From contig CAWJXK010000004.1 of assembly GCA_963846855.1 (NCBI GenBank), forward strand, positions 380,307 to 444,306: a stretch of DNA of 64,000 bases, written 5' to 3'. The notes beneath the pieces are model-generated. The model made no database searches, was not told the DNA's origin, and was given only the letters and a program-made list of their open reading frames with translations. This DNA comes from an uncultured beta proteobacterium. GTDB lineage: Bacteria > Pseudomonadota > Gammaproteobacteria > Burkholderiales > Casimicrobiaceae. The position numbers and the translations under genes were made by a program. Positions 28,325-48,746 of this stretch are shown here, piece after piece (position 1 is the first letter of the stretch; the number at the start of each line of letters is the position of its first letter).

Positions 28325-28331
28325 GGGCTGT

Positions 28332-33559: not shown

Positions 33560-33561
33560 TG

Positions 33562-34312: not shown

Positions 34313-35581
34313 ATGTCGGGACCGACGGCACGCGGGCGCGCAACGTCCGCTGACAGGCTTCCACGCACGCCATCGGGCATAGGCCTCGCGTTGGCGGGTG
34401 GCGGTCCCCTCGGCGGCATCTACGAAGTCGGCGCACTCGTCGCGCTGACCGACTCGCTCGATGGCATCGACTTCAACGAGCTCGACGCGTACGTCGGCGT
34501 GTCGTCCGGCGGCTTCGTCGCCGCCGCGCTGGCCAACGGCATCTCGCCGGCGCAGATGTACCGGCTTTTCATCGACGACGGCGTCGACGCCGCGCTGACG
34601 CCGCAGATTTTCCTGCGTCCGGCGCTGGGCGAATTCGCCCGCCGGGCGGCGTCGCTTCCGCGCCTCTTCGCCCGCGCCACGATGCAATACCTGCGCGACC
34701 CGTTCCAGCGCGGAGCGATGGAATCGTTCGCGACCCTGTCGCACGCGATCCCCACCGGCATGTTCGACAATGCGTCGGTCGGCGACTTCCTGCGCCGGCT
34801 CTTTTCCGCGCCGGGCCGCACCGACGATTTCCGCAGACTGAGACACAAGCTCTTCCTCGTCGCCACGAATCTCGATTCCGGCGCATCGGTGACCTTCGGC
34901 GCCGCCGGGCACGACCACGTCCCGATCTCGAAGGCGATCGAGGCCTCTGCCGCGCTGCCCGGGCTGTTTCCGCCGGTGGCGATCGGCGGCGAGCATTACG
35001 TCGACGGCGCGCTCAACAAGACGCTGCATGCGTCGGTCGCGCTCGATCAGGGTGTCTCGCTCCTGCTGTGCGTCAATCCGCTGGTGCCGTACGACTCGAG
35101 CCACGCCACCGGACGCGACCACGTGACGCCGCGCAAGCTGAACCAGGGCGGATTGCCACTGGTGCTGTCGCAGACGTTTCGCGCCATCATCCACTCGCGG
35201 ATGAAGGTCGGCATGGAGAAATACCGCAAGCAGTACCCGCACGCCGACGTCGTGCTGTTCGAACCCGACCGCGAGGATGCGGACATGTTCTTCGCCAGCA
35301 TCTTCAGCTACTCGCAGCGCAAGCGCCTGTGCGCGGCCGCGTACGAGAAGACGCGGCAGAACCTCACGGCGCGGATGGCGGCGCTCGAGCCGCTGCTCGC
35401 GCGCCACGGAATCGGCATCCGCCACGACCGGCTCGCCGATGCGTCGCGCAAGGTCACGGACGCGCTCAGCGATCCGCGCCCGCTGCACACGAATCGCGAC
35501 GACAACGACGTGCGCCAGACGGCGCGCGATCTCACGCACACCCTGGACCAGCTGCAGCGCTGGCTCGCCGGCGCCGCCTGA
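34313..35581 (+). CDS. patatin-like phospholipase/lipase
   Basis: Oxyanion GGGPLGG, nucleophile elbow GVSSG, and the catalytic Asp in YVDGAL. ATG 34313 is preceded by GAGGGG. Confidence 0.85.
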   Translation: MSGPTARGRATSADRLPRTPSGIGLALAGGGPLGGIYEVGALVALTDSLDGIDFNELDAYVGVSSGGFVAAALANGISPAQMYRLFIDDGVDAALTPQIFLRPALGEFARRAASLPRLFARATMQYLRDPFQRGAMESFATLSHAIPTGMFDNASVGDFLRRLFSAPGRTDDFRRLRHKLFLVATNLDSGASVTFGAAGHDHVPISKAIEASAALPGLFPPVAIGGEHYVDGALNKTLHASVALDQGVSLLLCVNPLVPYDSSHATGRDHVTPRKLNQGGLPLVLSQTFRAIIHSRMKVGMEKYRKQYPHADVVLFEPDREDADMFFASIFSYSQRKRLCAAAYEKTRQNLTARMAALEPLLARHGIGIRHDRLADASRKVTDALSDPRPLHTNRDDNDVRQTARDLTHTLDQLQRWLAGAA

Positions 35582-35662: not shown

Positions 35663-36310
35663 ATGGCGGAAAGGAAACGTCCCCGCCGCACCCGCGAACG
35701 CATCCTCGAAACGAGCCTCGCGCTGTTCAACCGGGCGGGCGCGCCGAACGTCACGACGGCGGACATCGCCGACGAGATGAGCATCAGCCCGGGCAATCTC
35801 TACTACCATTTCGGCAACAAGGAGGAGATCGTCGGCGAGCTCTACGCCGCGCACGAGGCGCGCGTATTGCCGCTCTTCGCCGACCCGGGCGGCAGGGCGA
35901 TCGGCGTCGAGGATGTGTGGCTGTGGCTGCACGTCCTGTTCGAGGAGATCGCGCGGCACCGCTTCCTCTACCGCGATCTCGACCTCATCGCGGCGCGCGA
36001 TCCGAGGCTCGGCGCGCGCTTCGGCAAGCTCGTCCGGCAGGGCAGCGCCACCGTGATAGAGTTGTGCCGCGCGATGGTCGCAGCGGGCACGATGCATGCG
36101 AGCGAGCGCGAGATCGCGGCGCTCGCGCAAAACATCCTGCTCGTCGCCACCTACTGGCACTCGTTCGAGCGGGTGCGCCGTGCCGCGCGTGACGACGCCA
36201 GCCCGCCCGACGCCGGACGCGCGGCGTATCAAGTGCTGACCCTGCTCGCGCCGTACCTTGTTGGCGACGCCCGAACGCTAATCGAGCGACTGGGAGAGGA
36301 CTACCTTTGA
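35663..36310 (+). CDS. TetR/AcrR-family transcriptional regulator
   Basis: HTH segment NVTTADIADEMSISPGNLYYHFGNKEEIV. Confidence 0.85.
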   Translation: MAERKRPRRTRERILETSLALFNRAGAPNVTTADIADEMSISPGNLYYHFGNKEEIVGELYAAHEARVLPLFADPGGRAIGVEDVWLWLHVLFEEIARHRFLYRDLDLIAARDPRLGARFGKLVRQGSATVIELCRAMVAAGTMHASEREIAALAQNILLVATYWHSFERVRRAARDDASPPDAGRAAYQVLTLLAPYLVGDARTLIERLGEDYL

Positions 36311-36323: not shown

Positions 36324-37100
36324 ATGGCGAAGAAATGGGCGAAGTTCCCGCATCCGGACAAGCGCTTCGCATACGACGCCGCCGGCCTGAAAAAGCATTG
36401 GCCGCGCCTGCATCGTGGCGACGGCGAGCCGTTCCCGAAAGACGCCGCGGTGCAGGAAGCCTGGCGCCATTTCCATTCCGGTGACTTCGCCGCGGCGGTC
36501 GAGGCAGGCGAGAGCGCCGGCGGGGCGGGCTTCAATGCCGCGGTCAAGGCGCAGGTCGTCTACGCGACCTACCTCGAGAAATCCGACAAGGCGAAGCTCG
36601 CGCTGCTCGAGGAAGCCGCAGGCTGGGCCGAGGCGCGCTGCGGTGCGGCGCCCAAGGACGCGAACGCGCACTACCTGCATGCCTTCGCGCTCGGCCGCTA
36701 CAGCCAGGGCATCTCGGTCGCGAAGGCGCTGGCGCAGGGCCTCGGCGGTCACGTCAAGGAGGCGCTGCTCTCAGCCATCAAGCTCGACCCGAAGCACGCT
36801 GACGCGCATATCGCCTACGGCGCCTACCAGGCTGAAGTGATCGATAAGGTCGGCGGCATCGTCGCAGGCATGACCTATGGCGCGAAGAAGGACTCCGCGG
36901 TCGAGCATTTCGAGAAGGCGATCAGGCTCAATCCCGATTCCGCGATCGCGCGCATCGAGTACGCCAACGGGCTCATCATCCTGTTCGGCAAGAGCAGAAT
37001 CGGCGAGGCCGAGAAGCTCTACCGGGAGGCGGCCGCCACGACTCCGGCGGACGCGATGGAGCGGCTCGACGTCGCGCGGGCGCAAGCCGAGCTCGACTGA
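36324..37100 (+). CDS. conserved hypothetical helical-repeat protein
   Basis: 258 aa with TPR-like helical pairs (KLDPKHADAHIAYGAYQ, IRLNPDSAIARIEYANGL). Lies 13 bp after the TetR gene. Confidence 0.55.
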   Translation: MAKKWAKFPHPDKRFAYDAAGLKKHWPRLHRGDGEPFPKDAAVQEAWRHFHSGDFAAAVEAGESAGGAGFNAAVKAQVVYATYLEKSDKAKLALLEEAAGWAEARCGAAPKDANAHYLHAFALGRYSQGISVAKALAQGLGGHVKEALLSAIKLDPKHADAHIAYGAYQAEVIDKVGGIVAGMTYGAKKDSAVEHFEKAIRLNPDSAIARIEYANGLIILFGKSRIGEAEKLYREAAATTPADAMERLDVARAQAELD

Positions 37101-37512: not shown

Positions 37513-38766
37513 TTGAACGCCCGTACGCGACGCCGTTTCAAATTGTTTGTCCTGCTATGCCTCGGCGCAGGCCCGGCCGCGGCCCAGCTGAACGTGACGC
37601 TCACCTCAATGAGCTTCACGCCAGCGTTAATCGCCATGGGCGAAACCTCGACGCTGTCGATCACCTTCGGGAATGACACCGGCGCCACGATCAGCAACGT
37701 GACGTTCACCGATGCCCTCCCGGCGGCAGTGACTTCCAATGCCTTCGGGTCTTCGACGTTCAGCCCAGGGTGCGTGTTTCAGAGCAACGTCGCGCTCGAC
37801 AGCATCACCGTCTACGGAAGCGTATCGGTCGCCGCACACAGTACATGCACGATAGAGACTCTCGTCAGCGCGAGCGCCTCGGGCCTGTATAGGAACGGCG
37901 CGGCGAATATCACCCGCTGGAACGGAAATGCCCTCTCGCTTCCGGACTCGATGCTGATCGTCACCGGTGGGGCGAATTACCAGGGCCTGTGGTGGGTACC
38001 GAACGGCGCAGAATCCGGGTGGGGCCTCAATTTCGCGCATCACGGCGACCAGATCTACGCCACGTGGTACACCTACGATACGAGCGGCAAGGCGTGGTGG
38101 CTGTCGATGCTCGCGGGGCGCACAACGCCGACCGGCAACACCTACGCGGGGAAAATCTACATCGATGTCGGGCCATCCTTCAACAACTATACCGGGACGG
38201 CGTTGGCAATCCAGGTTGGCGACGGAACGCTGACGTTCTCGGATGCCGACAACGGCAGCTTCTCCTACGACGTCAACGGGGTCGTCCAGACGAAGCCGAT
38301 CACGCGGTTCGACTTAGGCACGGGCCCGCAGCCAGTGTGCGTCTACAGCGCCGCCGGGCCGAACTTCACCCTGGCAACGAATTATCAGGACCTCTGGTGG
38401 GTGCCGAATGGTGCGGAGTCCGGCTGGGGGCTCAACCTCGCGCACCAGGGAAACAGCATCTACGCCACCTGGTACACATACGGCGTCGACGACCAGCCGC
38501 TATGGCTATCGGCGCTGGTCCAGTTCCAGGGCGGTAACGTCTACAGCGGGAAGGTCTACCAGAACTCGGGACCACGCTTCGACGTCTATGACAAGACCAA
38601 GGTGGCGGTGAATTCCGTGGGCAACGCGACGCTGTCGTTTTCCGACGGGAACCATGCGACCTTTGGATATAACGTGATGGTCGCGCCGTTTCCCGGGCCG
38701 ATCATCCAGTCCAAGCCGATCACGCGCTTCCCATTCAGCGGCGGCGGCGCGACCATCTGCCAGTAG
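37513..38766 (+). CDS. secreted protein with an Ig-like N-domain plus two tandem ~125-aa WWVPNGAESGWG domains
   Basis: TTG start and signal peptide LFVLLCLGAGPAAAQ. The internal duplication NYQGLWWVPNGAESGWGLNFAHHGDQIYATWYTYD... (from nt 37975) is repeated as NYQDLWWVPNGAESGWGLNLAHQGNSIYATWYTYG... (from nt 38380). Confidence 0.7.
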   Translation: MNARTRRRFKLFVLLCLGAGPAAAQLNVTLTSMSFTPALIAMGETSTLSITFGNDTGATISNVTFTDALPAAVTSNAFGSSTFSPGCVFQSNVALDSITVYGSVSVAAHSTCTIETLVSASASGLYRNGAANITRWNGNALSLPDSMLIVTGGANYQGLWWVPNGAESGWGLNFAHHGDQIYATWYTYDTSGKAWWLSMLAGRTTPTGNTYAGKIYIDVGPSFNNYTGTALAIQVGDGTLTFSDADNGSFSYDVNGVVQTKPITRFDLGTGPQPVCVYSAAGPNFTLATNYQDLWWVPNGAESGWGLNLAHQGNSIYATWYTYGVDDQPLWLSALVQFQGGNVYSGKVYQNSGPRFDVYDKTKVAVNSVGNATLSFSDGNHATFGYNVMVAPFPGPIIQSKPITRFPFSGGGATICQ

Positions 38767-38791: not shown

Positions 38792-40258
38792 CTACGCGGC
38801 GCGTGCGTGGCGCTCGACGACAGCGGCCGCAAGCGCGGGATCGAGATCGCCGTCCGGCCACGGGCAAAGCAGCGTCGTCAGCACGAGCTTCTCGAACTCG
38901 GGCAGGAAGCGCGCGATGATGCGTTCGGGATCCGGACAGAATCCGCGGTCGGTGATGAGCCCGAACTGGACGTGCCCGTCGTACGACAGGATCGACACGC
39001 CCATCCCGATGTCGCCTGACTGCGGCACCCAGAACATGAAGCGCTCGATGCGCGCGCCGGCGAGGTAGAGCGGCGTCTGCGGGCCGGGCACGTTGGTCAT
39101 CACGGCGCTCGCGTTGCGCGCCAGTACGGTGATGAGCTGCTCCTGCAGGAGCTTGGGGCCCGCTCCGGAGGCGGCGAGCAGGCCGAGAGTGAGCACGGGC
39201 TGGAAGCTGCCCTTGAGCGCGCGCATGTTCGCCCGCACCGCGTAGAGGCGCTCCACAGGATTCTCGATGCCGATCGGCAGCTCGAGGAACACGACGCCGA
39301 ACTGGTTGCCAAGCTTGTAGGCTTTCTCGAGCGGCCGCAGGTTGACGGGCACGAGCGCCCGCATCATCACGCCGTCCGTCGCGTCGCCCTTTCCGACGAG
39401 GTATTCGCGCAGCGCGCCGGCGACGCACGAGAGCAGCACGTCGTTGACCGACGCCCCAAGCGCGCGTCCGACCGCCTTTACCTCATCGAGCGGAATCGGC
39501 TCGGCCCAGGCGACCCGCTTGGCGACGCCCGGCGCGCCCTTGAAGCGCGTCGGCGAATCCTGGCCCATCATGGCGAGCTTGGCGATTTCCGCGGTGAGCG
39601 CGCCCCCCTGCTCCGCGAGCGCCAGCGCCTTGATCGGATCCACCCATATTTCGGTGCCCTTCTCGACCAGCGTCTTGCCAATGCCGAGCGCCATCTGCAG
39701 CGCGTTGGCGAGCGGCGCGGTGAGGGCGCCGAGCGAATCGGTCGACGCGTCCGCGCGCTTGCGCTGCGGCGGCGGCGCCGGCAGCGCCGGCGGGCCGCCC
39801 GGCGCCGAGTCCGTCATCGACAGCATCACCTGAACCAGCGCGATGCCGTCGGCGTAACAATGATGGATGCGGATGACGAGCGCGCTGCCGCCGTCGTAGT
39901 TGTCGACGAGATGCCATTGCCAGCGCGGATGCGCGGGATCGAGCTCGGTGGCAGCGAGCCGGCTCACCAGCGCCTCCAGCTCGCGCTTTCCCGCGCGCCC
40001 CGGCAGGGAGACGCGGACCAGATGGTAATCGAGATCGAGCTTCTCGCCGCCTTCCCAGCTCGCGATCCCGAGCGAATCGACCGGCCGTTGGCGGAAGCGC
40101 GGAAAGCGCAGGAAACGCTTCAGGACGACGGTGCGCAGGCGCGCCATCCGGATCGGAGTGCCAAACGTCAGCACGCCGCAGATCATCATCAGATTGGTTG
40201 GCCGGTCCATCCGCAGCCACGCGGTGTCGATCGCCGAAATCTTTTCGCGCTTTGCCAT
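38792..40258 (-). CDS. wax ester synthase / acyl-CoA:diacylglycerol acyltransferase (WS/DGAT)
   Basis: Catalytic HHxxxDG motif (HHCYADGIA), N-terminal SAIDTAWLRMD, 488 aa. I placed the start at ATG 40258. Confidence 0.88.
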   Translation of the reverse strand: MAKREKISAIDTAWLRMDRPTNLMMICGVLTFGTPIRMARLRTVVLKRFLRFPRFRQRPVDSLGIASWEGGEKLDLDYHLVRVSLPGRAGKRELEALVSRLAATELDPAHPRWQWHLVDNYDGGSALVIRIHHCYADGIALVQVMLSMTDSAPGGPPALPAPPPQRKRADASTDSLGALTAPLANALQMALGIGKTLVEKGTEIWVDPIKALALAEQGGALTAEIAKLAMMGQDSPTRFKGAPGVAKRVAWAEPIPLDEVKAVGRALGASVNDVLLSCVAGALREYLVGKGDATDGVMMRALVPVNLRPLEKAYKLGNQFGVVFLELPIGIENPVERLYAVRANMRALKGSFQPVLTLGLLAASGAGPKLLQEQLITVLARNASAVMTNVPGPQTPLYLAGARIERFMFWVPQSGDIGMGVSILSYDGHVQFGLITDRGFCPDPERIIARFLPEFEKLVLTTLLCPWPDGDLDPALAAAVVERHARAA

Positions 40259-40403
40259 CGGGGCTCTCGAGCGAGGGTCTCCGCCCGGCGCCGGAATTCG
40301 CATCCGGGCGCCCGCGGGCGCGCGCCGATTGCGCGCGTTTTGTGCTTCGCGCTAAAGTAGCATAGAAGGCGGATGCCCGGAAAACGGACCAGGAGGACGA
40401 ACG

Positions 40404-40679
40404 ATGGCCGCGCCGAAGAAGGACGATCTCAAGGCGAAGTTCGAAGCCGCCGCCGCGGCCGCGAAGCAGACGAAAAAGAAGCCCGACAACACGACGCTGC
40501 TGAAGCTCTACTCGTATTACAAGCAGGCAGTCGAGGGGGACGTTACGGGCGAGCGCCCGGGCGGATTCGACTTCGTCGGCGGCGCCAAGCACGACGCCTG
40601 GGCAAAGCTCAAGGGAATGAGCCGCGACGACGCGATGCAGAACTACGTGAAGCAGGTGGAAAAGCTCAACCGCGATTGA
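40404..40679 (+). CDS. acyl-CoA-binding protein (ACBP)
   Basis: 91 aa with LLKLYSYYKQAVEGD and GGAKHDAWAKLKGMSRDDAMQNYV, the classic ACBP signature. Confidence 0.88.
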   Translation: MAAPKKDDLKAKFEAAAAAAKQTKKKPDNTTLLKLYSYYKQAVEGDVTGERPGGFDFVGGAKHDAWAKLKGMSRDDAMQNYVKQVEKLNRD

Positions 40680-40753
40680 AGCGGGAGTGGCGACCTCGCT
40701 GCCGAACGGCGGCGCTTCGCGCGAAGCGCCGCGTCCGTATCACTTGCTCGTGT

Positions 40754-41275
40754 TCACTTGCTCGTGCGGCCGCGCGGCGCTTTCCGCGCGCTCGCCGGTT
40801 TCGCGGCCGCCTTCGTGCGCGGCTTGCGGGCGCCGCCCATCGCCGTTGCGCCCGACTGCTTCAGAAGCGCATTCACCGCCGCCGACAGCTCGTCGACGCG
40901 GGTGGCGAGCTTCTGCACGTCGTTCTGGGTGTAAACGCCTAGCTTCGACAGCGCCCGCTCGACTCGATCCTCGAACACCTTTTCGAGCTTGTCCCACGTT
41001 CCGCCGGCCATCTTCTGCATCTCCTTCGCCTTGGTCCGTGCGGCATCCTGTGCCGCGGCAGCCGTCTCGGCCGCCGCCTGCCGCGTCTTCTGCTCGATCT
41101 TCGTCCCCTGCAGGACGAGATTGTCGAACATCTTCATGCCTTCACGCTGCGCCTTGACGAACGCCCCGAGGCCGGCAAGCCAAATCTGATGCGACGAATC
41201 GAGCACGGACTGAGACAGATCCCGCGCCCCGGGTGTCTCGCCGCGCCCCAGTTGCGCCTTGGCTTTCTTGAGCAT
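40754..41275 (-). CDS. PHA-granule-associated protein (phasin, PhaF/PhaI-type N-domain) with a basic tail
   Basis: MLKKAK...SSHQIWLAGLGAFVKAQREG... with the C-terminus GGARKPRTKAAAKPASARKAPRGRTSK. Start at ATG 41275, preceded by GAGGAG. Confidence 0.7.
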   Translation of the reverse strand: MLKKAKAQLGRGETPGARDLSQSVLDSSHQIWLAGLGAFVKAQREGMKMFDNLVLQGTKIEQKTRQAAAETAAAAQDAARTKAKEMQKMAGGTWDKLEKVFEDRVERALSKLGVYTQNDVQKLATRVDELSAAVNALLKQSGATAMGGARKPRTKAAAKPASARKAPRGRTSK

Positions 41276-41323
41276 CGTGCGTTCTCCTCGACTTTTTCGC
41301 GTGCGGCCCACAAGGCCAGATCG

Positions 41324-41353
41324 CAATTCTAGGCCGACCGCCTAGAGCAATCA
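41324..41353 (-). promoter_or_regulatory. shared phasin promoter/operator box, copy 2
   Basis: On the minus strand: TGATTGCTCTA (41353-41343), 10 nt, then CTAGAATTG (41332-41324). The start codon lies 48 nt downstream. Confidence 0.5.
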
Positions 41354-41563
41354 TACTAAACCCGGTGTTGGTGCCGCCGGGCAATGCGGCATCTAGCGAG
41401 GGCGCCGCGTCGATTCTGCGCCGTATAATCGGCGTAACAATGCTCCGGCCCGAACGGCTCCGGCGAACGCCGTCCGCCGAAGCGCGCCGCAGCGCCCGCT
41501 GGAGCACCGCGCATCACCGTGCCACGACGGCAGCGCGCGATCATCATCTCAGGAGGGTTGGTC

Positions 41564-43552
41564 ATGGCGTACTTCGTCACCGGCGCGACCGGATTCATCG
41601 GCCGCTTCCTCGTCGCGAACCTGCTGAAGCGCGGCGATCCCATTTACGTGCTGGTTCGCAAGCGCTCGGCGAAGAAGCTCACGGAGCTGCGCGAGAATTA
41701 CTGGGGCGCCACCGAGGCGCAGGTGATCCCGGTGTTCGGCGACCTCGGCAAGGACAAGCTCGGCGTCGACGCCGGCGACCTGCGCAGGCTGCGCGGCAAG
41801 GTGAAGCATTTCTTCCATGTGGCCGCGGTCTACGACCTCACGGCGAGCGCCGAGGAACAGCAGCTCGCGAATGTCGAGGGCACGCGCAATGCCGTGCATT
41901 TCGCCGAGGCGATCGACGCCGGCTGCTTCCATCATGTGAGCTCGATCGCCGCGGCGGGACTCTACGACGGCGTCTTCCGCGAGGACATGTTCGAGGAGGC
42001 GGAGGACCTCGACCATCCGTACTTCAAGACCAAGCACGATTCCGAGCGTGTGGTGCGCAAGGAATGCAAGCGACCCTATCGCATCTACCGGCCCGGATTC
42101 GTCGTCGGACACTCGAAGACGGGATACATCGACAAGATCGACGGGCCCTACTATTTCTTCAAGTTCATCCAGAAGATGCGCAAGGCGCTGCCGCCGTGGA
42201 TGCCGATGATCGGCGTCGAGGGCGGCCGCATCAACATCGTGCCGGTCGACTTCGTCGCCGACGCGCTCGACTATCTCGCGCACAAGCGCGGGCTCGACCG
42301 CAGGTGCTTCCACCTGACCGACCCCGCGCCGCACCGCATCGGCGAAGTGCTGAACATCATCGCCCGGGCCGCCCATGCGCCGCAGATGACGCTGCGCGTC
42401 AACGCGCGGATGTTCGGGTTCATTCCGGCGCCGATCCTCTACGGGATCGGATCGCTCGCGCCTGTGAAGCGGATGATCCGCGCCGTCCTCACTGACGTTG
42501 GCGTTCCCAAGGACGTGTTCCAGTTCATCAACTGGCCGACGCGCTACGACAACCGCGAAACGACCAAGGCGCTCAAGGGATCGGGCATCGCGGTGCCGCA
42601 TCTCGAGACGTACGCACCCAGATTGTGGGACTACTGGGAGCGCAACCTCGACCCGGACCTCTTCATCGACCGCACGCTCGCCGGGCGGGTCAAGGACAAG
42701 GTGGTGGTCGTCACCGGATCATCGTCGGGCATCGGCAAGGCGACGGCACTGAAGCTCGCCGAGGCCGGCGCAAAGGTAATCCTCGTCGCGCGTGGCGAGG
42801 AGAAGCTCGTCGAGACGAAGCAGGAGATCGAGAAGGCCGGCGGCCGTGCCTACATCTATACCGCGGACGTTTCCGACCTCGCCTCCTGCGACGCGCTGGT
42901 CGCGCGCGTGCTGAAGGACCATGGCGTCTGCGACTACCTCGTCAACAACGCGGGTCGCTCGATCCGCCGCGGCGTGATCAATTCGTTCGACCGGTTCCAC
43001 GACTTCGAGCGGACGATGCAGCTCAATTATTTTGGTTCGCTGCGCCTCATCTTCGGCTTCCTGCCGAAGATGATCGAGCAGAAGCGCGGGCAGATCATCA
43101 ACATCTCGTCGATTGGCGTACTGTCGAACGCGCCCCGCTTCTCGGCCTACGTCGCGTCGAAATCAGCGCTCGATTCGTTCTCGGCCTGCGCAGCGTCGGA
43201 ATTCCTCGACAAGGGGATCAGCTTCACGACGATCAACATGCCGCTGGTGCGCACGCCGATGATCGCGCCGACCAAGATGTACGAGAACGTGCCGACGCTC
43301 TCACCCGAGCAGGCCGCGGATCTCGTCGTGGAGGCGATCGTCTACAAACCGGTGCGGATCGCGACGCGACTCGGCATTTTCGGCGCCGTTTGCCACGCGG
43401 CCGCGCCGAAGCTCACGCAGATCCTGCTCAACACGGCATTCAACATGTTCCCGGACTCGGCGGCCGCGCAGGGGAAGAAGCCCGGCGAGCCGCAGCCGCT
43501 GACGGCCGAGCAGATGGCGTTCGCCCAGCTCACCCAGGGGATTCACTGGTAG
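41564..43552 (+). CDS. two-domain fatty acyl-CoA reductase (NAD-binding reductase domain plus Acr1-like SDR domain)
   Basis: 662 aa. The N-terminal Rossmann fold is VTGATGFIGRFL and the second is VVTGSSSGIGKATA. Size and architecture resemble the Marinobacter Maqu_2507 / Rhodococcus FcrA alcohol-forming reductases. ATG 41564 is preceded by AGGAGGG. Confidence 0.75.
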   Translation: MAYFVTGATGFIGRFLVANLLKRGDPIYVLVRKRSAKKLTELRENYWGATEAQVIPVFGDLGKDKLGVDAGDLRRLRGKVKHFFHVAAVYDLTASAEEQQLANVEGTRNAVHFAEAIDAGCFHHVSSIAAAGLYDGVFREDMFEEAEDLDHPYFKTKHDSERVVRKECKRPYRIYRPGFVVGHSKTGYIDKIDGPYYFFKFIQKMRKALPPWMPMIGVEGGRINIVPVDFVADALDYLAHKRGLDRRCFHLTDPAPHRIGEVLNIIARAAHAPQMTLRVNARMFGFIPAPILYGIGSLAPVKRMIRAVLTDVGVPKDVFQFINWPTRYDNRETTKALKGSGIAVPHLETYAPRLWDYWERNLDPDLFIDRTLAGRVKDKVVVVTGSSSGIGKATALKLAEAGAKVILVARGEEKLVETKQEIEKAGGRAYIYTADVSDLASCDALVARVLKDHGVCDYLVNNAGRSIRRGVINSFDRFHDFERTMQLNYFGSLRLIFGFLPKMIEQKRGQIINISSIGVLSNAPRFSAYVASKSALDSFSACAASEFLDKGISFTTINMPLVRTPMIAPTKMYENVPTLSPEQAADLVVEAIVYKPVRIATRLGIFGAVCHAAAPKLTQILLNTAFNMFPDSAAAQGKKPGEPQPLTAEQMAFAQLTQGIHW

Positions 43553-43561
43553 GACTTGCGG

Positions 43562-43765
43562 ACGGGGAAGCAGGGGGAACGCGCGAGCGGCGAGCAGGGG
43601 CCCCGCGCACATTTCGCGCGGGGATGCGAGCAATCGCGAGCCGCGTTCGGAGGCCGACCGCTGGCCACCCGCACGCCAAGCGCGTGATGGAGGCCGAACC
43701 GCGCGCGGAGCGCGCGGGGATGCGGCCCGGAGCAAGGCCAGGCGGCCGACAACGCGACCTTCACT
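43562..43765 (+). repeat. dispersed ~205-bp intergenic repeat, copy 2
   Basis: Colinear with 236-440. The hairpin stems differ, but complementarity is preserved. Confidence 0.75.
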
Positions 43766-43855
43766 CCACAACGACGGTCGCGGAAGGCCGCGCGGCTCCA
43801 AAAGGTGAGCCACCACCCTGTATGACGGGTCGCGGAAGGCTGCGGCGCGCCGCAA

Positions 43856-44794
43856 TCAGCGTCGCGGCGGCGATTTCGCAACCGCATCGGCCTGCACCTT
43901 CGCAAGCAGCTCGGCGGCGCACGCGAACACGCCCGCGTCGGCCAGCAGCGCGTTATGCGCGACGCCGACGAAGTCAACTTCTTCCGAGCCGTCCCAGCGC
44001 GCGCTGAGCTGCGGGATGACCATCGAGTCGTGCCAGCTCCAGAGCGCGACGCAGCGCACACCCGGCGGCGGCGCGTCACGGTTGAGGCGCTCGAGCCATT
44101 CGCCGCCAGGGCGCATTTCGCCGAGGCAGGTTCCCGGGAACATTCCCGCGAGAATGCTGCCGCGGTGCGGCGTCCCGATCGTCACCACTGCACGGATCCC
44201 GTCCGTTCCGTAACGGCGCAGGTATGCGCGCGCGACGAGACCTCCCATGCTGTGACAGAGCAGCGTGACGCCGGAGGCGCCGGTCGCGGTCCTGATGGCC
44301 GCGACCTTTTCCGCGACCTGCGCGGCGAATATTTCGATCGAGGCCAGCGGCGGCCCGTACGACAGCGTGTACAGCGGCCCGATGCCGCGCTCGCGCAGAC
44401 GTTGCATGAAAGGAAACCAGACGCCGGCGTTGCAGCCGATCCCGTGCAGCAGCAGCACCGGCGCCCCGGCAGGCGCAGGCGCGGGCTCGCGCATCAGCCA
44501 CCAGCGGAATCCCATCCGGATCGGCGATCCGGCGATGCAACGCACCTCGGTCAGGAAGCATCCTACGGCGCGCCACGACCCGATTCGCTTGTCCGGCGGC
44601 CGCGGCGAACGGTGAATCCATGCGATCGCGAACCAATAGGTGACCGCGACGAAGGGAACCGCGAAATACGCCGCGACCGCGCCGAGGATCACGAGCGGCC
44701 ACGGCGCACCCTGCGCGATCGCGTGCGCGCCCCACGCCGCATAGGCGGCAGCGCCAAGCAGATACAGCGCAGCCAGTGTGACGGCGGTGATCAA
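43856..44794 (-). CDS. membrane-anchored alpha/beta-hydrolase (lipase/esterase-like)
   Basis: Two N-terminal hydrophobic helices, HGIGCN, and the nucleophile elbow HSMGG. The TTG start lies 9 bp after the regulator's stop codon. Confidence 0.75.
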   Translation of the reverse strand: MITAVTLAALYLLGAAAYAAWGAHAIAQGAPWPLVILGAVAAYFAVPFVAVTYWFAIAWIHRSPRPPDKRIGSWRAVGCFLTEVRCIAGSPIRMGFRWWLMREPAPAPAGAPVLLLHGIGCNAGVWFPFMQRLRERGIGPLYTLSYGPPLASIEIFAAQVAEKVAAIRTATGASGVTLLCHSMGGLVARAYLRRYGTDGIRAVVTIGTPHRGSILAGMFPGTCLGEMRPGGEWLERLNRDAPPPGVRCVALWSWHDSMVIPQLSARWDGSEEVDFVGVAHNALLADAGVFACAAELLAKVQADAVAKSPPRR

Positions 44795-44803: not shown

Positions 44804-45745
44804 TCATCGCCGGGCCACAGCCGCTTCCGCGGCCTGCGGAAAATGCGCGCGCCAGCTCTTGAGCGCGCCCAGCACCGCGGCGAGCTCGGGGATCAGCACG
44901 ACGCCCGGCAGCGTCTTGCGCACGCGGCGCGTCATCTCGCCGCCCGCCCACAGCGTCATGCCTTGCGGCAGCTGCCGGCGCAGCGTCGCGAGACCGTCGC
45001 TCGCCTGGCGCACCGGAAAGGCCGCCGAGAACGACAGCGCGAGGATGTGCACCTCATGCGCGAGCGCGGCGCGGCGAATGTCCTCGAGCGGCGTCTGGAC
45101 GCCGAGCGAGATGCATTGCGTGCCCTCGGGCACGAGCATCGCCTCGACCATCAGCAGGCCAAGCCCGTGGTGCTCGCCCGGAAACGTCGTCAGCAGCACG
45201 CGCGGCGTTCCTGTCTGGCGCGGAAAGGAATTGATCGCGGCACGGAGCACGGCCTGCATCTGCTCGGTGTAAAGATGCTCCTCGAACACCGGAAGCTCGC
45301 CGCGCATCCACGCGTCGCCGATCGCGCGGTTCAACGGCGCCAGCGACTCCTGGACGAACCGCTGCAGCCCCTGCTTCATGATGAGGTTCGCGAGCGAATT
45401 CTGCAGCGCGGTGACGTCATGCGCGCGCAGCATCGCCAGCACGTCCTTCTCGATGACGGGCGTGGACGTGTCGGCGCGCGCTGCGGTTCGCGCTTCGGCC
45501 AGCGTGTTGAGCGCCTCCTGCGTCGCGTGGATGATCTTGCCGGGGCGCAGGCCCACGTCCATCAGGCGCTTGATCGTGCGCAGCTTCTCGATCTCGGAAA
45601 CCGAGTACTGGCGCTCGCCGTTCTCGTCGCGGCCGGGCTTGGGAAAGCCGTAGCGACGCTCCCACATCCGCAAGACGTCCTTGGACAGGCCGGTCTCGCG
45701 CTCGACTGCGCTGATATTGAGAATGATGCTGTGGGAGGGGTCCAT
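44804..45745 (-). CDS. MerR-family regulator with a C-terminal cobalamin-binding domain (CarH/LitR-type photoreceptor candidate)
   Basis: MerR HTH (ISAVERETGLSKDVLRMWERRYGFPKP). It carries the W-x9-E-H motif (WMRGELPVFEEH) and the E-x-H-x-x-G motif (EHHGLG), followed by ...ALSFS... and WAGG. Confidence 0.75.
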   Translation of the reverse strand: MDPSHSIILNISAVERETGLSKDVLRMWERRYGFPKPGRDENGERQYSVSEIEKLRTIKRLMDVGLRPGKIIHATQEALNTLAEARTAARADTSTPVIEKDVLAMLRAHDVTALQNSLANLIMKQGLQRFVQESLAPLNRAIGDAWMRGELPVFEEHLYTEQMQAVLRAAINSFPRQTGTPRVLLTTFPGEHHGLGLLMVEAMLVPEGTQCISLGVQTPLEDIRRAALAHEVHILALSFSAAFPVRQASDGLATLRRQLPQGMTLWAGGEMTRRVRKTLPGVVLIPELAAVLGALKSWRAHFPQAAEAAVARR

Positions 45746-46171: not shown

Positions 46172-46248
46172 GGCGAATTAGCTCAGCTGGTTAGAGCAGA
46201 GGAATCATAATCCTTTGGTCCGGGGTTCGAGTCCCTGATTCGCCACCA
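46172..46248 (+). tRNA. tRNA with anticodon CAU (elongator Met, or Ile2 if lysidine-modified)
   Basis: A 77-nt cloverleaf folded by hand: acceptor GGCGAAU/AUUCGCC, D-arm GCUC..GAGC, anticodon stem GAGGA/UCCUU with loop AUCAUAA (CAT at 46206-46208), T-arm CGGGG-UUCGAGU-CCCUG, and an encoded CCA. Met versus Ile2 cannot be decided by eye. Confidence 0.9.
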
Positions 46249-46290
46249 AAAAAACAACGGCCTGCAGCGATGCAGGCCGTTTTGTCTTGC
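46248..46290. terminator. bidirectional rho-independent terminator (tRNA / DUF2950 gene)
   Basis: aaaaaaa-acggcctgca-gcga-tgcaggccgt-tttg. Confidence 0.75.
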
Positions 46291-46310: not shown

Positions 46311-47210
46311 TTACTTCTGCGGCACTTTCGACCAGGTCGAATCAGGGTTGAATTCTTTCATCGCCATTGCGACCGAACTTCCGTTCGGGCCGAGATCCTT
46401 CTCGTAGACGGTGCCGTCCTTGCCGGCGATGAACGTCATCACGCCCGTGTCGCCCCATTTGACCGGCCATGCGACGAACGCGTAGCCACCGGTCATCGCG
46501 CCGTTGGCGACATAACTCAATGCGCCGCCGGGCGCGTCCTTGCCCTGCGCCGTCAGCACCCGGTAGCGATAGCCGTGATAGCCCTGGCCCGGCTTCACCG
46601 TCGCGACTTCGGAACCCAACGGGCTCTCGGGCTCGCCCGGCTTCGTCGGCCAGTAAAGGCCGTCCCTCTTTCCCTTGGTCGAGATGATGCGTGGCGCGTA
46701 GTCGTTCTTGCCATTCTTGTCGCGGTCGAACTTGCGGTAATCCTCTTCCGCGTCCCCGCATGCGAGCACGACCTGGATGGCGTTGAGCTCGTTGCGGCCG
46801 ATGCGCCGGATGCGCAGCTCCTCGGGCGTCGCCTGCGTGTCGAACGACCAGCCCGCCTCGGACTTGACGATCGGGATCGGCAGCGTCCAGCCGTTTGTGC
46901 CGACCTCGAGATACGCCTTAGCGTCGCCCGCCTGCACGATCTTGTGGGACTTCGCCCATGCCGCGAGGAAGTTGGTCACGCTGTTCGCGGTCCGGTGCGG
47001 AATGTATTTCGCGTAATCGGCGCCGACGATGGCCTTGAGCGCGTCGCCGTCGTTGGCGGCGAGGCTCTGGACAAATGCGTTTGCCGCGGCATCCGGCGTC
47101 GGATACGCCTTTTGCGCCTGCGCGGCGGGAGCGATCACCAGGGCACACGCGCCGAGCGCCAACGCGAGGCCGCGCGTGGCGCGATTCAGGAGAGAGGATT
47201 GCGTTTTCAT
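46311..47210 (-). CDS. DUF2950-family secreted protein
   Basis: Signal peptide plus QKAYPTPDAAANAFVQSL...GWTLPIPIVK...GYAFVAWPVKWGDTGVMTF, as in DUF2950 proteins. I placed the start at ATG 47210. Confidence 0.75.
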   Translation of the reverse strand: MKTQSSLLNRATRGLALALGACALVIAPAAQAQKAYPTPDAAANAFVQSLAANDGDALKAIVGADYAKYIPHRTANSVTNFLAAWAKSHKIVQAGDAKAYLEVGTNGWTLPIPIVKSEAGWSFDTQATPEELRIRRIGRNELNAIQVVLACGDAEEDYRKFDRDKNGKNDYAPRIISTKGKRDGLYWPTKPGEPESPLGSEVATVKPGQGYHGYRYRVLTAQGKDAPGGALSYVANGAMTGGYAFVAWPVKWGDTGVMTFIAGKDGTVYEKDLGPNGSSVAMAMKEFNPDSTWSKVPQK

Positions 47211-47226
47211 TTTTCCGGTCTCCCTG

Positions 47227-48597
47227 TCAACGCCGCCCGCCGCCGCCACGGCCACCGCCACCACGGCCACCGCCGCCGCCCGACGGACGCGACGCACCGC
47301 CGCCCGACGGACGCGACGCACCGCCGCCCGAGGGACGCGACGCACCGCCGCCCGAGGGACGCTGCGCCTGCTGCATCGACCTCTGACTCGAGTTGCCACG
47401 GCTGATTTCGGTGCCCGCGCGGCGATCGGTAACGCCGCTCATGGCGTCATTGCGCGAAGGCGCTCCGCCTCGGTCGAAGCTCTGGGCCTGACCGCGACCC
47501 ACGTCGCGGTTCATGTTCTGCGCGCCGCCTCGGTCGAGGCTCCTCGCCTGCTGGTTGAGATTCCCGCGGTTGGCGTCGCTCAACGCGGCGCGATCCGTGC
47601 TGACGCCGCGGTTCTGCAGCGACTGCTGCGCGCGCTGGCGGTCGGCGTCCTTGCCGCGGTACTGGTCGCGATTGACCTGCTGCGAGCGGTTCTGCAGATT
47701 CTGCCGGGTCTGCTCGCCGCCGCGGTACGGCGTGTTCCTGCGATTCTCGACGTTGTGATTCCACTTCGCGTTGTTGATGTTGCCGCGGTTGATCTGGTTG
47801 TTGCGGTTGATGTTGTTGTAGCGGTTGACGTTGATGTTGACGTCGTGGTTCCACCAGTTGCACCCGCCCCACATCGCGTTGCGCACGCCGATGCCCACGC
47901 CCCACGCGATGCCCGTGATCACCGCCGCCGAGAACCAATAGCCCGGTGGATAAGGGATGTAATACGGCGGGTAGGCGGGGTACGGCCACGGCCCGTAGAC
48001 GTAGGTCGGGTTGTACGACGGAACGTAGATCACCTCGGGGCTCTTCTGCTCGATGACGATCACCTGCGGAGGCGGCGGTGGCGAGGCCGCCTCGACGACG
48101 ACGTCCGGCGGCGGCACGGTCTCGGTCGTGACGATAACCTCGTTGTTCGACTTGAGGTTGCCCGCCCTCTGCGCGGCCGCGCGCAGTCGCTGCACGGAAT
48201 CCATCACGGCGTCGGGCTGTGCGAGGAACGCGTCGCCCAGGTCCTTCACCCAATCGGGCTTCTCACCCATCATGATGATGACCTGCGGAAAGGCGACGAG
48301 CGACTGCACGCTCGGGTCCCAGGGCTGGTCCTGGACCTTCTCCACGGCCTCGTCGCCCTTGTCGTCCGCGTGGGCGCGTGACCATTTGGCGGCTTCGGCC
48401 ACGTCGGCCGGGTAGGTCGACGCCATCAGCACCTGCGACAGCAGCGCGTCCGGATACAGCGCGATCTGCGCGGTCATCTGGTCGAGCTGCTCCCTGGAGA
48501 ACGGCTTGTCGCCGGCCTGGGCGGCGGCGATCGCCGGAGCGGCGAGCGCCAGTGCCAGAAGCGGCCAGCGCAGCCAACGGCAGACAGAGGTCGTCAC
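47227..48597 (-). CDS. DUF3300-family secreted protein with a Gly/Arg/Asn-rich C-terminal tail
   Basis: FSREQLDQMTAQIALYPDALLSQVLMASTYP...VAFPQVI is the DUF3300 core. GTG start at 48597, preceded by AGGAG. The tail contains RPSGGGAS x3 and GGGGRGGGGRGGGGRR. Confidence 0.75.
   Translation of the reverse strand: MTTSVCRWLRWPLLALALAAPAIAAAQAGDKPFSREQLDQMTAQIALYPDALLSQVLMASTYPADVAEAAKWSRAHADDKGDEAVEKVQDQPWDPSVQSLVAFPQVIIMMGEKPDWVKDLGDAFLAQPDAVMDSVQRLRAAAQRAGNLKSNNEVIVTTETVPPPDVVVEAASPPPPPQVIVIEQKSPEVIYVPSYNPTYVYGPWPYPAYPPYYIPYPPGYWFSAAVITGIAWGVGIGVRNAMWGGCNWWNHDVNINVNRYNNINRNNQINRGNINNAKWNHNVENRRNTPYRGGEQTRQNLQNRSQQVNRDQYRGKDADRQRAQQSLQNRGVSTDRAALSDANRGNLNQQARSLDRGGAQNMNRDVGRGQAQSFDRGGAPSRNDAMSGVTDRRAGTEISRGNSSQRSMQQAQRPSGGGASRPSGGGASRPSGGGASRPSGGGGGRGGGGRGGGGRR
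47273..47368. repeat. 4 x 24-bp in-frame tandem repeat at the 3' end of the DUF3300 gene
   Basis: Units ccgccgcccga(c/g)ggacgcgacgca begin at 47273, 47297, 47321 and 47345; the last is degenerate. Confidence 0.85.
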
Positions 48598-48746
48598 GGG
48601 AACTCCTGAGGAGCTTGGTTGCGCGTCGCTTCCGCGCAAAGGACTCTTGATCGGGGTGCGTCGCGGATTCTAGCGAACCCACGCACACGCGTCCATGCGC
48701 TGCCAGGGTTCGCTCGATCCTGCACGTCCTCTGGCAGAATGCGGCG

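Follow-up and report, generated by a model that had tools for sequence, protein, structure and literature searches.

A conserved gene neighbourhood, probably for neutral-lipid storage, that includes a bacterial acyl-CoA-binding protein in Casimicrobiaceae

To our knowledge, no bacterial acyl-CoA-binding protein (ACBP) has an assigned role, and the locus described here raises the question of whether an ACBP gene found among genes of lipid synthesis belongs to a functional set and how far that set extends. From the sequence of the window (the whole 64-kb stretch of DNA that was analysed), the original prediction had proposed a self-contained five-gene block for wax ester bodies. All five open reading frames exist and all scored above the family thresholds in profile HMM searches:

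38792–40303, reverse strand: wax ester synthase/diacylglycerol acyltransferase (WS/DGAT; TIGR02946, PF03007, PF06974; motif IHHCYADG)
40404–40679, forward strand: ACBP, 91 aa (PF00887, 97.6 bits, cut-off 28.3)
40754–41275, reverse strand: phasin1, 173 aa, with a Lys/Arg/Ala/Pro tail (PF05597, 135 bits; TIGR01837, 100.5 bits, cut-off 94.7)
41564–43552, forward strand: two-domain fatty acyl-CoA reductase (FAR), 662 aa, with an N-terminal NAD_binding_4 domain (thioester-reductase type) and a C-terminal Acr1-like SDR domain
43856–44794, reverse strand: membrane-anchored lipase-like alpha/beta hydrolase, 312 aa (Abhydrolase, Palm_thioest, PGAP1, Lipase_2)

The domain assignments made at the outset (WS/DGAT, ACBP, basic-tailed phasin, two-domain reductase and membrane-anchored hydrolase) all hold, and the clustering of the five genes is far above chance. 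Since they lie on alternating strands, as separate transcription units, the module is not an operon.

The WS/DGAT scored 406 bits against TIGR02946 (cut-off 310), with matches to both PF03007 and PF06974, and a 100-bp spacer separates its gene from the divergent ACBP gene. The ACBP can be aligned with solved mammalian ACBPs over its entire length and retains the ligand residues Y36, Y39, K40, K62 and Y81, corresponding to bovine Y28, Y31, K32, K54 and Y73. In the FAR, the two domains (NAD_binding_4, 168 bits; adh_short, 183 bits) carry intact Rossmann motifs (GATGFIG and TGSSSGIG) and YxxxK motifs (YFKTK and YVASK); an Acinetobacter SDR shares 55.6% identity with the C-terminal domain, and two-domain proteins of Tsukamurella share 42% with the protein as a whole. 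By profile match (983 bits against the equivalog NF005539/PRK07201, cut-off 549) the FAR is assigned to the Maqu_2507/Rv3391-type family, whose characterized members Maqu_2507 and Mycobacterium tuberculosis FCR1/Rv3391 convert acyl-CoA to fatty alcohol (PMC3522743). The 662-aa reductase is not of the polyketide type, one of the outcomes that would have spoken against the original prediction.

The phasin1 reading frame spans 40754–41326 (reverse strand), contains HQIWLAGLGAF and ends in the tail KPRTKAAAKPASARKAPRGRTSK. Its most likely start, predicted from the sequence, is the ATG at 41275, which gives 173 aa, because a GGAGAA ribosome-binding site lies upstream and the gene call in a relative is 174 aa.

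The boundaries of the proposed block proved too narrow, as four further core genes lie upstream at 33.6–37.1 kb:

33641–34102, forward strand: phasin2, 153 aa, with an Arg/Lys-rich C-terminal tail (PF05597, 31 bits, cut-off 28.8)
34262–35581, forward strand: patatin-like lipase/phospholipase (PF01734, 94 bits; GGGxxG, GVSSG and DGA motifs intact)
35663–36310, forward strand: TetR-family regulator with a PF13972 C-terminal domain (119.6 bits) and a TetR_N match
36324–37100, forward strand: cytosolic TPR protein, 258 aa (TPR Pfam matches), 14 bp downstream of the TetR gene

The phasin2 reading frame opens at 33614, the 153 aa being counted from an ATG with a ribosome-binding site, and the protein is 32% identical to phasin1 across the N-terminal WLAGLGA region. 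The window also holds genes for FadB, FadL, three FadD-like proteins and FadE at 12.9–30.2 kb.

Lack of conservation in relatives had been named beforehand as one result that would refute the module; the neighbourhood is conserved, and this test does not refute it. In 79 further species-level genomes of Casimicrobiaceae (ACBP 76–97% identical), counted among loci that were long enough, we found WS/DGAT in 73 of 74, phasin1 in 71 of 72, FAR in 61 of 63, TetR in 68 of 69, TPR in 67 of 70, patatin in 63 of 67 and phasin2 in 64 of 66. The gene order held in ∼60–74 species-level genomes, even though identity has dropped to 37–55% for the hydrolase and phasin2. Beyond this family, 22 diverse ACBP loci with enough flanking sequence (GC 41–73%) had TetR in 16 cases, FAR and phasin in 13 each, TPR in 9, patatin in 7 and WS/DGAT (within 10 kb) in 5, each frequency being far over the chance expectation of 1.5%.

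The same families occur, in different orders, in Lysobacter, Thermomonas, Mizugakiibacter, Paucibacter and Candidatus Contendobacter, taxa that were identified by exact ACBP look-up. In a Xanthomonadales-type arrangement, patatin-phasin-FAR diverges from ACBP-TetR-(phasin-like)-TPR; a Contendobacter-type arrangement has TetR, patatin, phasin and WS/DGAT diverging from ACBP; and in locus L087 WS/DGAT is followed by TPR-TetR-ACBP, which diverges from FAR and a phasin gene. The TPR gene comes after ACBP-TetR in both L087 and L139, and some loci have phasin-ACBP pairs on the same strand. The conserved core consists of FAR, ACBP, PF13972-TetR, TPR, one or two phasin-like proteins and patatin. Close relatives of the ACBP occur in at least 423 species genomes; the ACBPs of other Burkholderiales, Ralstonia and Mycetohabitans, have unrelated neighbourhoods, next to tsaB/rimI and glyoxylate-shunt genes, and several two-domain FARs lack any module partner. 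The module-bearing organisms are mostly uncultured MAGs, and the hosts of the gene set include many soil and sludge bacteria.

As the best 80 loci all come from one family and the genes form separate transcription units on alternating strands, their adjacency might reflect inherited gene order without functional coupling. This is highly improbable, given that the same families are arranged in four or more ways that differ in order and orientation, that they recur across Burkholderiales, Xanthomonadales and Competibacteraceae at GC contents from 41% to 73%, and that the phasin genes have a promoter element in common (see below).

The grouping of WS/DGAT with FAR, ACBP and phasin, as originally predicted, is borne out in Casimicrobiaceae but often not outside it, where the closest partner of ACBP is FAR or TetR rather than the wax synthase. 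Because WS/DGAT is not within 10 kb in 17 of the 22 loci outside Casimicrobiaceae, a wax ester end product is less secure than fatty alcohol formation. A core in which FAR diverges from ACBP-TetR-TPR could instead serve acyl-CoA homeostasis or form fatty alcohol or aldehyde for uses other than storage (membrane or ether lipids, surface waxes, relief of acyl-CoA overload), with ACBP acting mainly as the partner of an acyl-CoA-sensing regulator and WS/DGAT being a secondary addition in some lineages. The low count of WS/DGAT relative to TetR and FAR fits this proposal, as does the usual placement of ACBP directly upstream of TetR and in the same orientation; in loci L089 and L090, moreover, a related FAR lies beside an FAD-linked oxidase and a UbiA prenyltransferase, a pairing that resembles ether-lipid synthesis. 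Nevertheless, we regard it as quite unlikely: most long loci have phasin-like coat proteins and patatin alongside the core, which fits storage and mobilization, WS/DGAT is adjacent in almost all Casimicrobiaceae loci, and in other genomes it could be encoded elsewhere.

The phasin genes are further linked by a 17-bp promoter/operator element:

31323–31339, forward strand: diverged third copy, TTAGATTGAATAGTCTA, upstream of the GMC oxidoreductase operon and followed by a TAGATT −10 box
31404–33559, forward strand: two-gene operon of a Tat-signal small subunit, 176 aa (31404–31934), and a GMC-family flavoprotein oxidoreductase (∼31943–33559)
33556–33572, forward strand: 17-bp element, TTAGTGTGATTGCTCTA, before phasin2, with a TAGATT −10 box 11 nt downstream
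41343–41359, reverse strand: second exact copy, TTAGTATGATTGCTCTA, before phasin1, followed by a TAGAAT −10 box

At up to three mismatches, the element has two matches in 64 kb (expected, 0), and the phasin1 copy overlaps the inverted repeat TCTAGGC-n5-GCCTAGA. The phasin2-side element is kept in place in nearly all related loci, and the element precedes phasin genes both in Casimicrobiaceae and in the other lineages. It was found at 21 of 27 phasin genes in loci with TetR versus one of six in loci without it (Fisher p = 0.0096), although these counts are small and phylogenetically non-independent. The PF13972-TetR is accordingly a candidate regulator of the module. Better-matching elements occupy the position of the third copy in ∼20 related loci, and in L017 the element precedes the genes of the Tat-signal subunit and the GMC protein, a pair that is found upstream of phasin2 in L001 and L017 as well. 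The GMC protein matches GMC_oxred_N and GMC_oxred_C, the small subunit matches TAT_signal weakly, and no specific NCBIfam model matched the operon, which is possibly co-regulated with the lipid module.

The basic tails vary in sequence but keep their charge, with a net value of +8 or more in 91% of phasin1 orthologues and 97% of phasin2 orthologues. PF05597 and TIGR01837 are families of PHA-granule proteins. The two phasins might thus be ordinary PHA-granule proteins, clustered with the other genes through joint regulation of carbon storage (PHA and lipid) or a shared supply of acyl-CoA/3-hydroxyacyl-CoA, with FAR, WS/DGAT and ACBP acting independently of them. The PF05597 and TIGR01837 scores of phasin1 suit this explanation, and Ca. 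Contendobacter, which bears the module, belongs to a group known to store PHA. The same gene has also been taken as PHA-related in metagenome scaffolds (PMC10351704). We consider the explanation unlikely, however, as neither the 64-kb window nor the gene calls for L001 and L087 include a PHA synthase, depolymerase or PhaR. Furthermore, the phasin genes stay beside FAR, ACBP and patatin across several independent rearrangements, whereas the PF05597 phasin genes of Pseudomonas sit within the pha cluster.

The enzyme for turnover had been sought in the membrane lipase. The lipase-like hydrolase is real: it has N-terminal hydrophobic segments at residues 1–20 and 30–60, and its best matches among solved proteins are, weakly (E 5e-9), triacylglycerol lipases of Burkholderia, Pseudomonas and Bacillus. 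Its motif, CHSMGG, is an A/C-x-S-x-G variant, as occurs in Bacillus LipA, and not a strict G-x-S-x-G. It is co-transcribed with the gene located 9 bp upstream on the same strand:

44804–45745, reverse strand: CarH-like MerR regulator with a B12-binding domain (MerR_1, B12-binding_2, B12-binding; NF052513 (CarH), 140 bits, below the cut-off of 400)

The hydrolase was present in 47 of 59 and the CarH-like regulator in 44 of 56 Casimicrobiaceae loci, and neither was found in the other lineages sampled. Owing to this restriction and the co-transcription, patatin is the more general candidate for the mobilization of stored lipid.

The locus is probably the version, in Casimicrobiaceae, of a module that is conserved in proteobacteria, stores neutral lipid (fatty alcohol, wax ester or TAG) and is joined by WS/DGAT in some lineages. 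The larger gene set most likely serves to make fat droplets, to coat and regulate them and to break them down. Acyl-CoA would come from fatty acids via the adjacent FadL (uptake) and FadD (activation) or from de novo synthesis. ACBP would hold it and, if its effect is in the direction of synthesis, hand it to the FAR for reduction to fatty alcohol in two NADPH-dependent steps; it would also feed the WS/DGAT, which may esterify fatty alcohol or diacylglycerol to wax ester or TAG. The hydrophobic product would gather in cytoplasmic bodies with the two amphipathic phasin-like proteins as the putative coat, whose K/R/A/P tails may bind DNA, holding the bodies to the nucleoid. Patatin, along with the membrane-anchored hydrolase in Casimicrobiaceae, would free acyl chains for use by the beta-oxidation enzymes encoded nearby. 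The TetR regulator, which probably responds to acyl-CoA, would bind the 17-bp element, which overlaps the phasin promoters at their −35 region.

Part of this arrangement has been described before. In Burkholderiales metagenome scaffolds (OP731420, OP731421), ws/dgat adjoins an ACBP gene, together with genes for a 'polyhydroxyalkanoic acid system family protein'/phasin and for an SDR with ∼59% identity to MAQU_2507, and ACBP was suggested to aid neutral-lipid synthesis (PMC10351704; PLoS One, 2023). The adjacency is the same as in our locus, so the original view that the role of ACBP had gone without prior notice was only partly right; that description was confined to the arrangement on a few scaffolds and took the phasin as PHA-related. 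It did not extend to the phasin2-patatin-TetR-TPR block upstream, to conservation throughout the family and across orders, to the basic tails or to the common promoter element.

Marinobacter aquaeolei VT8 (FAR Maqu_2507 plus WS/DGAT) and M. tuberculosis FCR1/Rv3391 share the two-domain reductase family (NF005539), whose characterized members provide fatty alcohol for wax esters (PMC3522743), and the VT8 wax synthase is of the same WS/DGAT family. Those systems have no described partners of the ACBP, phasin, TetR or TPR type, and the activity of the FAR in the window is predicted.

In Pseudomonas, PhaF is a PF05597 phasin whose histone H1-like basic tail tethers granules to the nucleoid, and the TetR-family PhaD controls the phasin promoter. 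Our locus has the same domain, basic tails and a candidate TetR-family regulator, but the tails are short (∼35 aa) and without regular AAKP repeats. PHA synthases and a depolymerase are encoded beside phaF and phaI in the pha cluster, whereas the phasins of the window neighbour FAR, WS/DGAT, ACBP and patatin.

The proposed working scheme is similar to that of Rhodococcus jostii, where the amphipathic major droplet protein MLDS/TadA binds DNA through a basic C-terminal (PAKKA) tail and a dedicated regulator, MLDSR, binds a promoter/operator before the coat gene (PMC5504291). However, MLDS is apolipoprotein-like and unrelated to PF05597, its regulator is of the XRE type and not TetR, and the system, in an actinobacterial host, stores TAG without an ACBP.

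Eukaryotic cytosolic ACBPs (bovine, human, yeast Acb1), which buffer acyl-CoA and donate it to acyltransferases, are ∼48% identical to the window ACBP over the full length, with all ligand-contact residues kept. An ACBP-DGAT1 fusion is cited in PMC10351704 (its reference 62) as having better acyltransferase kinetics. The ACBP described here is, by contrast, bacterial and encoded inside a cluster of reductase, acyltransferase and regulator genes, a context that offers the first testable job for a bacterial ACBP.

All five reading frames of the original prediction, which had grouped them as a self-contained wax-ester unit, are present at their predicted boundaries and score above curated family thresholds; HMM searches matched the WS/DGAT, acyl-CoA-binding protein (ACBP), phasin, NAD_binding_4 and SDR domains assigned to them:

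38792–40303 (−), WS/DGAT; TIGR02946, 406 bits (cut-off 310)
40404–40679 (+), ACBP; PF00887, 97.6 bits (cut-off 28.3), profile positions 2–76 of 76
40754–41326 (−), phasin1 reading frame; PF05597, 135 bits; TIGR01837, 100.5 bits (cut-off 94.7)
41564–43552 (+), two-domain fatty acyl-CoA reductase (FAR); NAD_binding_4 PF07993, 168 bits; adh_short PF00106, 183 bits
43856–44794 (−), alpha/beta hydrolase with a CHSMGG motif

All the enzymes belong to known families, of which they are ordinary representatives. The WS/DGAT family protein, for which acyltransferase activity is predicted, matched both domains of the family (PF03007, 127 bits; PF06974, 139 bits) and its translation retains the active-site motif HHxxxDG as IHHCYADG. 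The ACBP is intact and predicted to bind long-chain acyl-CoA: solved mammalian ACBPs align with it end to end (E = 1.6e-21), and its Y36, Y39, K40, K62 and Y81 align with bovine Y28, Y31, K32, K54 and Y73, the ligand contacts as numbered in established ACBP structures. The ATG at 41275, downstream of a GGAGAA ribosome-binding site, is the most likely start of phasin1, which then has 173 aa. FAR covers all 657 of 657 positions of the equivalog model NF005539/PRK07201 (983 bits, cut-off 549), and its translation has intact motifs in the first (GATGFIG, YFKTK) and second (TGSSSGIG, NNAG, YVASK) domains. It is of the PRK07201/Maqu_2507/Rv3391 type, with a predicted NADPH-dependent conversion of acyl-CoA to fatty alcohol; this reduction has been demonstrated for members of the family, of which FCR1 is required for wax esters in M. 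tuberculosis (PMC3522743).

The description of the fifth protein as a membrane lipase holds as far as the CHSMGG motif and a hydrophobic N-terminus with two such segments are concerned, with candidate Asp (WHDS) and His (VAHN) residues for the triad. Its similarity to solved triacylglycerol lipases, the best relatives found, is weak and limited to residues 111–222 (E = 5e-9), and it matched none of the specific family models.

Strands alternate through the five genes: WS/DGAT and ACBP diverge from a 100-bp spacer, ACBP and phasin1 converge, phasin1 and FAR diverge across ∼290 bp, and FAR and the hydrolase converge. These genes are real, but as a unit they omit an upstream block running from a second phasin gene to a TPR gene, which the following features include:

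31404–33559 (+), GMC operon directly upstream of phasin2: 176-aa Tat-signal subunit and 538-aa GMC flavoprotein
33641–34102 (+), phasin2, PF05597-type, with a tail more basic than that of phasin1
34262–35581, patatin lipase
35663–36310, TetR with PF13972 C-terminal domain
36324–37100, TPR protein
37513–38766 (+), DUF7933 secreted protein, 417 aa, between the TPR and WS/DGAT genes
44804–45745 (−), CarH-like regulator with MerR HTH and B12-binding domains
46172–46245, tRNA gene at the right end of the block
46256–46281, bidirectional terminator at the right end of the block

A densely packed set of genes for fatty-acid uptake and beta-oxidation lies just upstream of the module (12938–30182: two FadB-like genes, FadL, three AMP-binding acyl-CoA synthetases, a FadE-type dehydrogenase and a TetR_C_30 regulator); besides these fatty-acid genes, the stretch from 12.9 to 33.5 kb holds the two-subunit GMC oxidoreductase. 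This enzyme could be a fatty-alcohol oxidiser, but the Tat signal of its small subunit argues for a periplasmic location. At the other end, the regulator at 44804–45745 scored 140 bits against NF052513, the equivalog model of the AdoB12-dependent light-sensing repressor CarH, below the cut-off of 400, and on its domains is best termed CarH-like only. It lies on the same strand as the hydrolase gene, which follows it after a 9-bp gap; the two are apparently co-transcribed, and in the closest relative (L001, 13143–16742) a fatty-acid desaturase gene is located just upstream, a grouping suggestive of lipid remodelling under the control of light or B12. An Rfam scan found the tRNA only. Just after the tRNA and terminator come overlapping DUF2950 and DUF3300 genes (46311–48639, −) with short tandem repeats at ∼47230–47400, coding for (GGGASRPS)n plus stretches of Gly/Arg at one end and, in the other frame, for (RRVPRAAV)n; AT skew in this region dips to −0.16 at 46–48 kb.

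A search of one genome per species with an ACBP alignment as query detected a close relative in at least 423 genomes, and the best 80 of these all came from Casimicrobiaceae or from MAGs labelled ‘uncultured beta proteobacterium’, the group to which the window organism belongs. The neighbourhood, on whose conservation in relatives the original prediction depended, is retained near-universally in Casimicrobiaceae loci. Among loci long enough to show each gene, we counted WS/DGAT in 73 of 74, phasin1 in 71 of 72, FAR in 61 of 63, TetR in 68 of 69, the TPR protein in 67 of 70, patatin in 63 of 67, phasin2 in 64 of 66, the hydrolase in 47 of 59 and the CarH-like gene in 44 of 56. Gene order and orientation are kept despite divergence of the hydrolase and phasin2 to 37–55% identity. 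Eight loci have a ∼4.5-kb insertion between ACBP and phasin1, which in the one read as an example (L012) encodes a Hanks-type Ser/Thr protein kinase (10905–12764, −). Such a kinase occurs within the module in two separate lineages, the other being represented by L087, a locus with a divergent FAR (4702–7914, +, between WS/DGAT and TPR). The DUF7933 gene appears to have entered the module recently: besides the closest relative (L001/L003), a single locus (L063) showed it, as a weak partial match in a different place.

Both phasins are amphipathic, basic-tailed, phasin-like proteins as judged from their sequences. Comparison of the phasin with solved structures revealed no resemblance to any; phasin2 scored 31 bits against PF05597 (cut-off 28.8) and only 25.5 against TIGR01837. 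The net charge of the last 40 residues is at least +8 in 91% of phasin1 and 97% of phasin2 orthologues, whereas the tail sequences themselves are not conserved, which points to selection on charge. PhaF has a histone-H1-like, DNA-binding tail with AAKP repeats; the K/R/A/P tail found here, by comparison, spans only ∼35 aa and lacks a regular repeat. Long AKP repeats are present in some distant homologues (L107, L119), at the N-terminus. Family membership would also fit phasins that serve PHA granules, with the cluster reflecting joint regulation of carbon storage. We regard this as unlikely: pha genes are absent near every version of the module, and neither PHA synthase (PhaC) nor PhaZ was found in the 64-kb window or in the gene calls for L001 and L087. 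The 2026 Casimicrobium paper mentions neither PHA nor lipid storage. In Acinetobacter baumannii (L174, a chromosome that PLSDB lists as a plasmid), a PF05597 phasin gene (7842–8348, +; 114 bits) is flanked by the isc operon (IscR, IscS) and hupB/ppiD, with neither pha nor wax-ester genes nearby; Acinetobacter is a classical wax-ester-storing genus.

Beyond the family, a profile of 13 diverse FARs again matched Casimicrobiaceae almost exclusively, with six usable divergent matches, of which five were looked up. One of these loci, L087, whose FAR is 66% identical, has the module (WS/DGAT, kinase, and TPR-TetR-ACBP divergent from FAR), and 2 kb from it encodes a PF05597 phasin with a basic tail; at the other four (FARs 55–61% identical) no module partner was present. 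With the L087 ACBP as seed, a metagenome scan yielded 80 loci with GC contents from 41% to 73%, of which the 22 with flanks of no less than 5 kb on the left of ACBP and 2.5 kb on its right were used for family frequencies. These were 16/22 for PF13972-type TetR, 13/22 each for FAR and PF05597 phasin, 9/22 for the TPR protein, 7/22 for patatin and 5/22 for WS/DGAT; 3/22 loci had none of the six families. Co-occurrence of ACBP with its partner families, as originally proposed, is above chance in these 22 diverse loci (binomial tails of 1e-5 to 1e-25 against a generous 1.5% chance per family), the loci being phylogenetically non-independent. The closest partners of ACBP are FAR and TetR, rather than WS/DGAT. 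In the commonest layout, borne out by Pfam searches on L139, patatin, phasin and FAR diverge from ACBP, TetR, another small protein of apolipoprotein-like type (encoded on the opposite strand) and TPR; elsewhere, WS/DGAT diverges from ACBP or a phasin gene immediately precedes ACBP in the same orientation. Exact look-ups of ACBP identified Mizugakiibacter/Xanthomonadaceae, Thermomonas, Lysobacter dokdonensis, Lysobacter auxotrophicus, Paucibacter sediminis, a Burkholderiales MAG and Ca. Contendobacter as hosts. The hydrolase and CarH-like gene were not found beyond the Casimicrobiaceae set among the loci compared. As negative controls, ACBP contexts from Ralstonia, Mycetohabitans and Variovorax in a plasmid collection lacked the module; in Ralstonia solanacearum and Mycetohabitans, ACBP is next to tsaB/rimI and near aceA/aceB, with no lipid-storage genes close by.

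Independent rearrangements across orders contradict the notion that the gene order is simply inherited and has no function, which we find hardly credible. The infrequency of an adjacent WS/DGAT outside Casimicrobiaceae favours another explanation, in which the core of FAR divergent from ACBP-TetR-TPR maintains acyl-CoA homeostasis or makes fatty alcohols for purposes other than storage, WS/DGAT being a secondary addition; we think this quite improbable and prefer a function in neutral-lipid storage.

Several related arrangements came to light in these comparisons. Two-domain FARs 59–61% identical, without ACBP or phasin, are encoded in L088 (9687–12049), L089 (2555–7584), L090 and L093; L089 and L090 also have an FAD-linked oxidase (alkyl-DHAP-synthase-like) and a UbiA prenyltransferase after the FAR/zinc-ribbon pair, which suggests an ether-lipid route. 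The 99–102-aa gene diverging from FAR in L088–L093 was considered as an ACBP and rejected, as it encodes a zinc-ribbon-like protein. An apparent ACBP-phasin fusion in L108 and L136 was likewise dismissed: the two are adjacent genes in separate reading frames. In Variovorax boronicumulans (L084, 5729–7198), a 489-aa protein annotated as acyl-CoA-binding, with a C-terminal ACBP domain, follows a MASE1-domain gene and a patatin-like phospholipase, a further ACBP-patatin link with a different architecture.

The two phasin genes of the window share a 17-bp promoter element, TTAGTRTGATTGCTCTA, with 2 matches in 64 kb compared with 0 expected, and a third copy, diverged in sequence, lies ahead of the GMC oxidoreductase operon:

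31323–31339 (+), third, diverged copy
33556–33572 (+), copy ahead of phasin2
41343–41359 (−), copy ahead of phasin1

Better-matching third copies occupy the same place in ∼20 relatives. The element (consensus yTAGTGTGATTGCTCTA) was seen across L004–L082 and L087–L167, preceding phasin genes in almost all Casimicrobiaceae loci and phasin-like genes in Xanthomonadales-type loci as well. It forms an imperfect dyad (TAGnGnnA/TnnCnCTA), overlaps the expected −35 position and is followed ∼10–12 nt downstream by a TAnAAT-type −10 box. A generic sigma-70 scan did not pick up the module promoters, because their −35 region is non-canonical and overlapped by the conserved element. In the diverse set, the element was found at 21 of 27 phasin genes with TetR in the locus vs 1 of 6 without it (Fisher p = 0.0096). 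TetR is the obvious candidate to bind it, and we infer TTAGTGTGATTGCTCTA as the candidate operator sequence.

Sequence and comparative analysis reveal enzymes of appropriate families and an ACBP, all of them intact, as well as lipases, a co-conserved regulator and two phasin-like proteins under a common promoter element, with fatty-acid uptake and beta-oxidation genes adjacent. On balance, we consider it fairly probable that these genes specify a neutral-lipid storage body; we are far surer that the genes are functionally linked than of which product is stored or what the phasins do. ACBP would hold long-chain acyl-CoA and hand it to FAR, yielding fatty alcohol, and to WS/DGAT, yielding wax ester or TAG. 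The resulting bodies would be coated by the phasin-like proteins, whose tails may tether them to DNA, and the store would be mobilised by patatin and, in Casimicrobiaceae, also by the membrane hydrolase, while TetR would tie expression of the coat genes to acyl-CoA status. A more specific combination is put forward tentatively, as a possibility short of probable: that the PF05597 ‘phasins’ of this module would coat wax-ester/TAG bodies and not be PHA proteins, that an acyl-CoA-responsive PF13972 TetR would switch the coat genes through the 17-bp operator, and that a dedicated ACBP would channel acyl-CoA to the reductase and wax synthase.

To our knowledge, bacterial ACBPs, recognised in genomes some twenty years ago, have no assigned function, and coat proteins of neutral-lipid bodies, known in actinobacteria, are hardly known at all in Gram-negative bacteria. 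The module is one conserved set in which an ACBP occurs with two candidate coat proteins, a reductase, lipases and a regulator whose operator is recognisable; its carriers include very abundant soil and activated-sludge bacteria and the cultured genera Lysobacter and Paucibacter. It may also provide engineering parts for production of wax esters and fatty alcohols: an ACBP to pair with FAR/WS, scaffolds for droplets and perhaps a switch that responds to acyl-CoA. A first plasmid transformation, with pBBR1MCS-2, reported for Casimicrobium huifangae (strain SJ-1), a cultured species cited here as a member of the family and not as a known module carrier (PMC13515534), together with the cultured module genera, makes every inferred step directly testable.

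The original prediction knew of no assigned role for bacterial ACBPs in such a system, which is right only in part. ACBP adjoining ws/dgat, along with a MAQU_2507-like SDR and a PHA-system/phasin gene, was reported in 2023 in Burkholderiales scaffolds from sub-Antarctic sediment; one gammaproteobacterial scaffold was similar, and ACBP was suggested to aid neutral-lipid synthesis (PMC10351704). The present analysis adds how far the module really extends (to a second phasin, patatin, TetR and a TPR protein), that nearly all Casimicrobiaceae loci conserve it, and that it recurs in rearranged form in Xanthomonadales, Competibacteraceae and other Burkholderiales, cultured species included. It further adds the retention of charge in the phasin tails, the promoter/operator element that the phasin genes have in common, with its association with TetR, and the ranking of FAR and TetR, ahead of WS/DGAT, as the nearest partners of ACBP. 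MLDS and PhaF are precedents for a coat protein with a DNA-binding tail: Rhodococcus MLDS coats droplets, binds DNA via its basic C-terminal tail and is expressed under a regulator acting at its promoter/operator (PMC5504291). Should the combined reading of coat, TetR and ACBP be true, it would provide the first physiological role for a bacterial ACBP and a Gram-negative lipid-droplet system analogous to MLDS/MLDSR of Rhodococcus.
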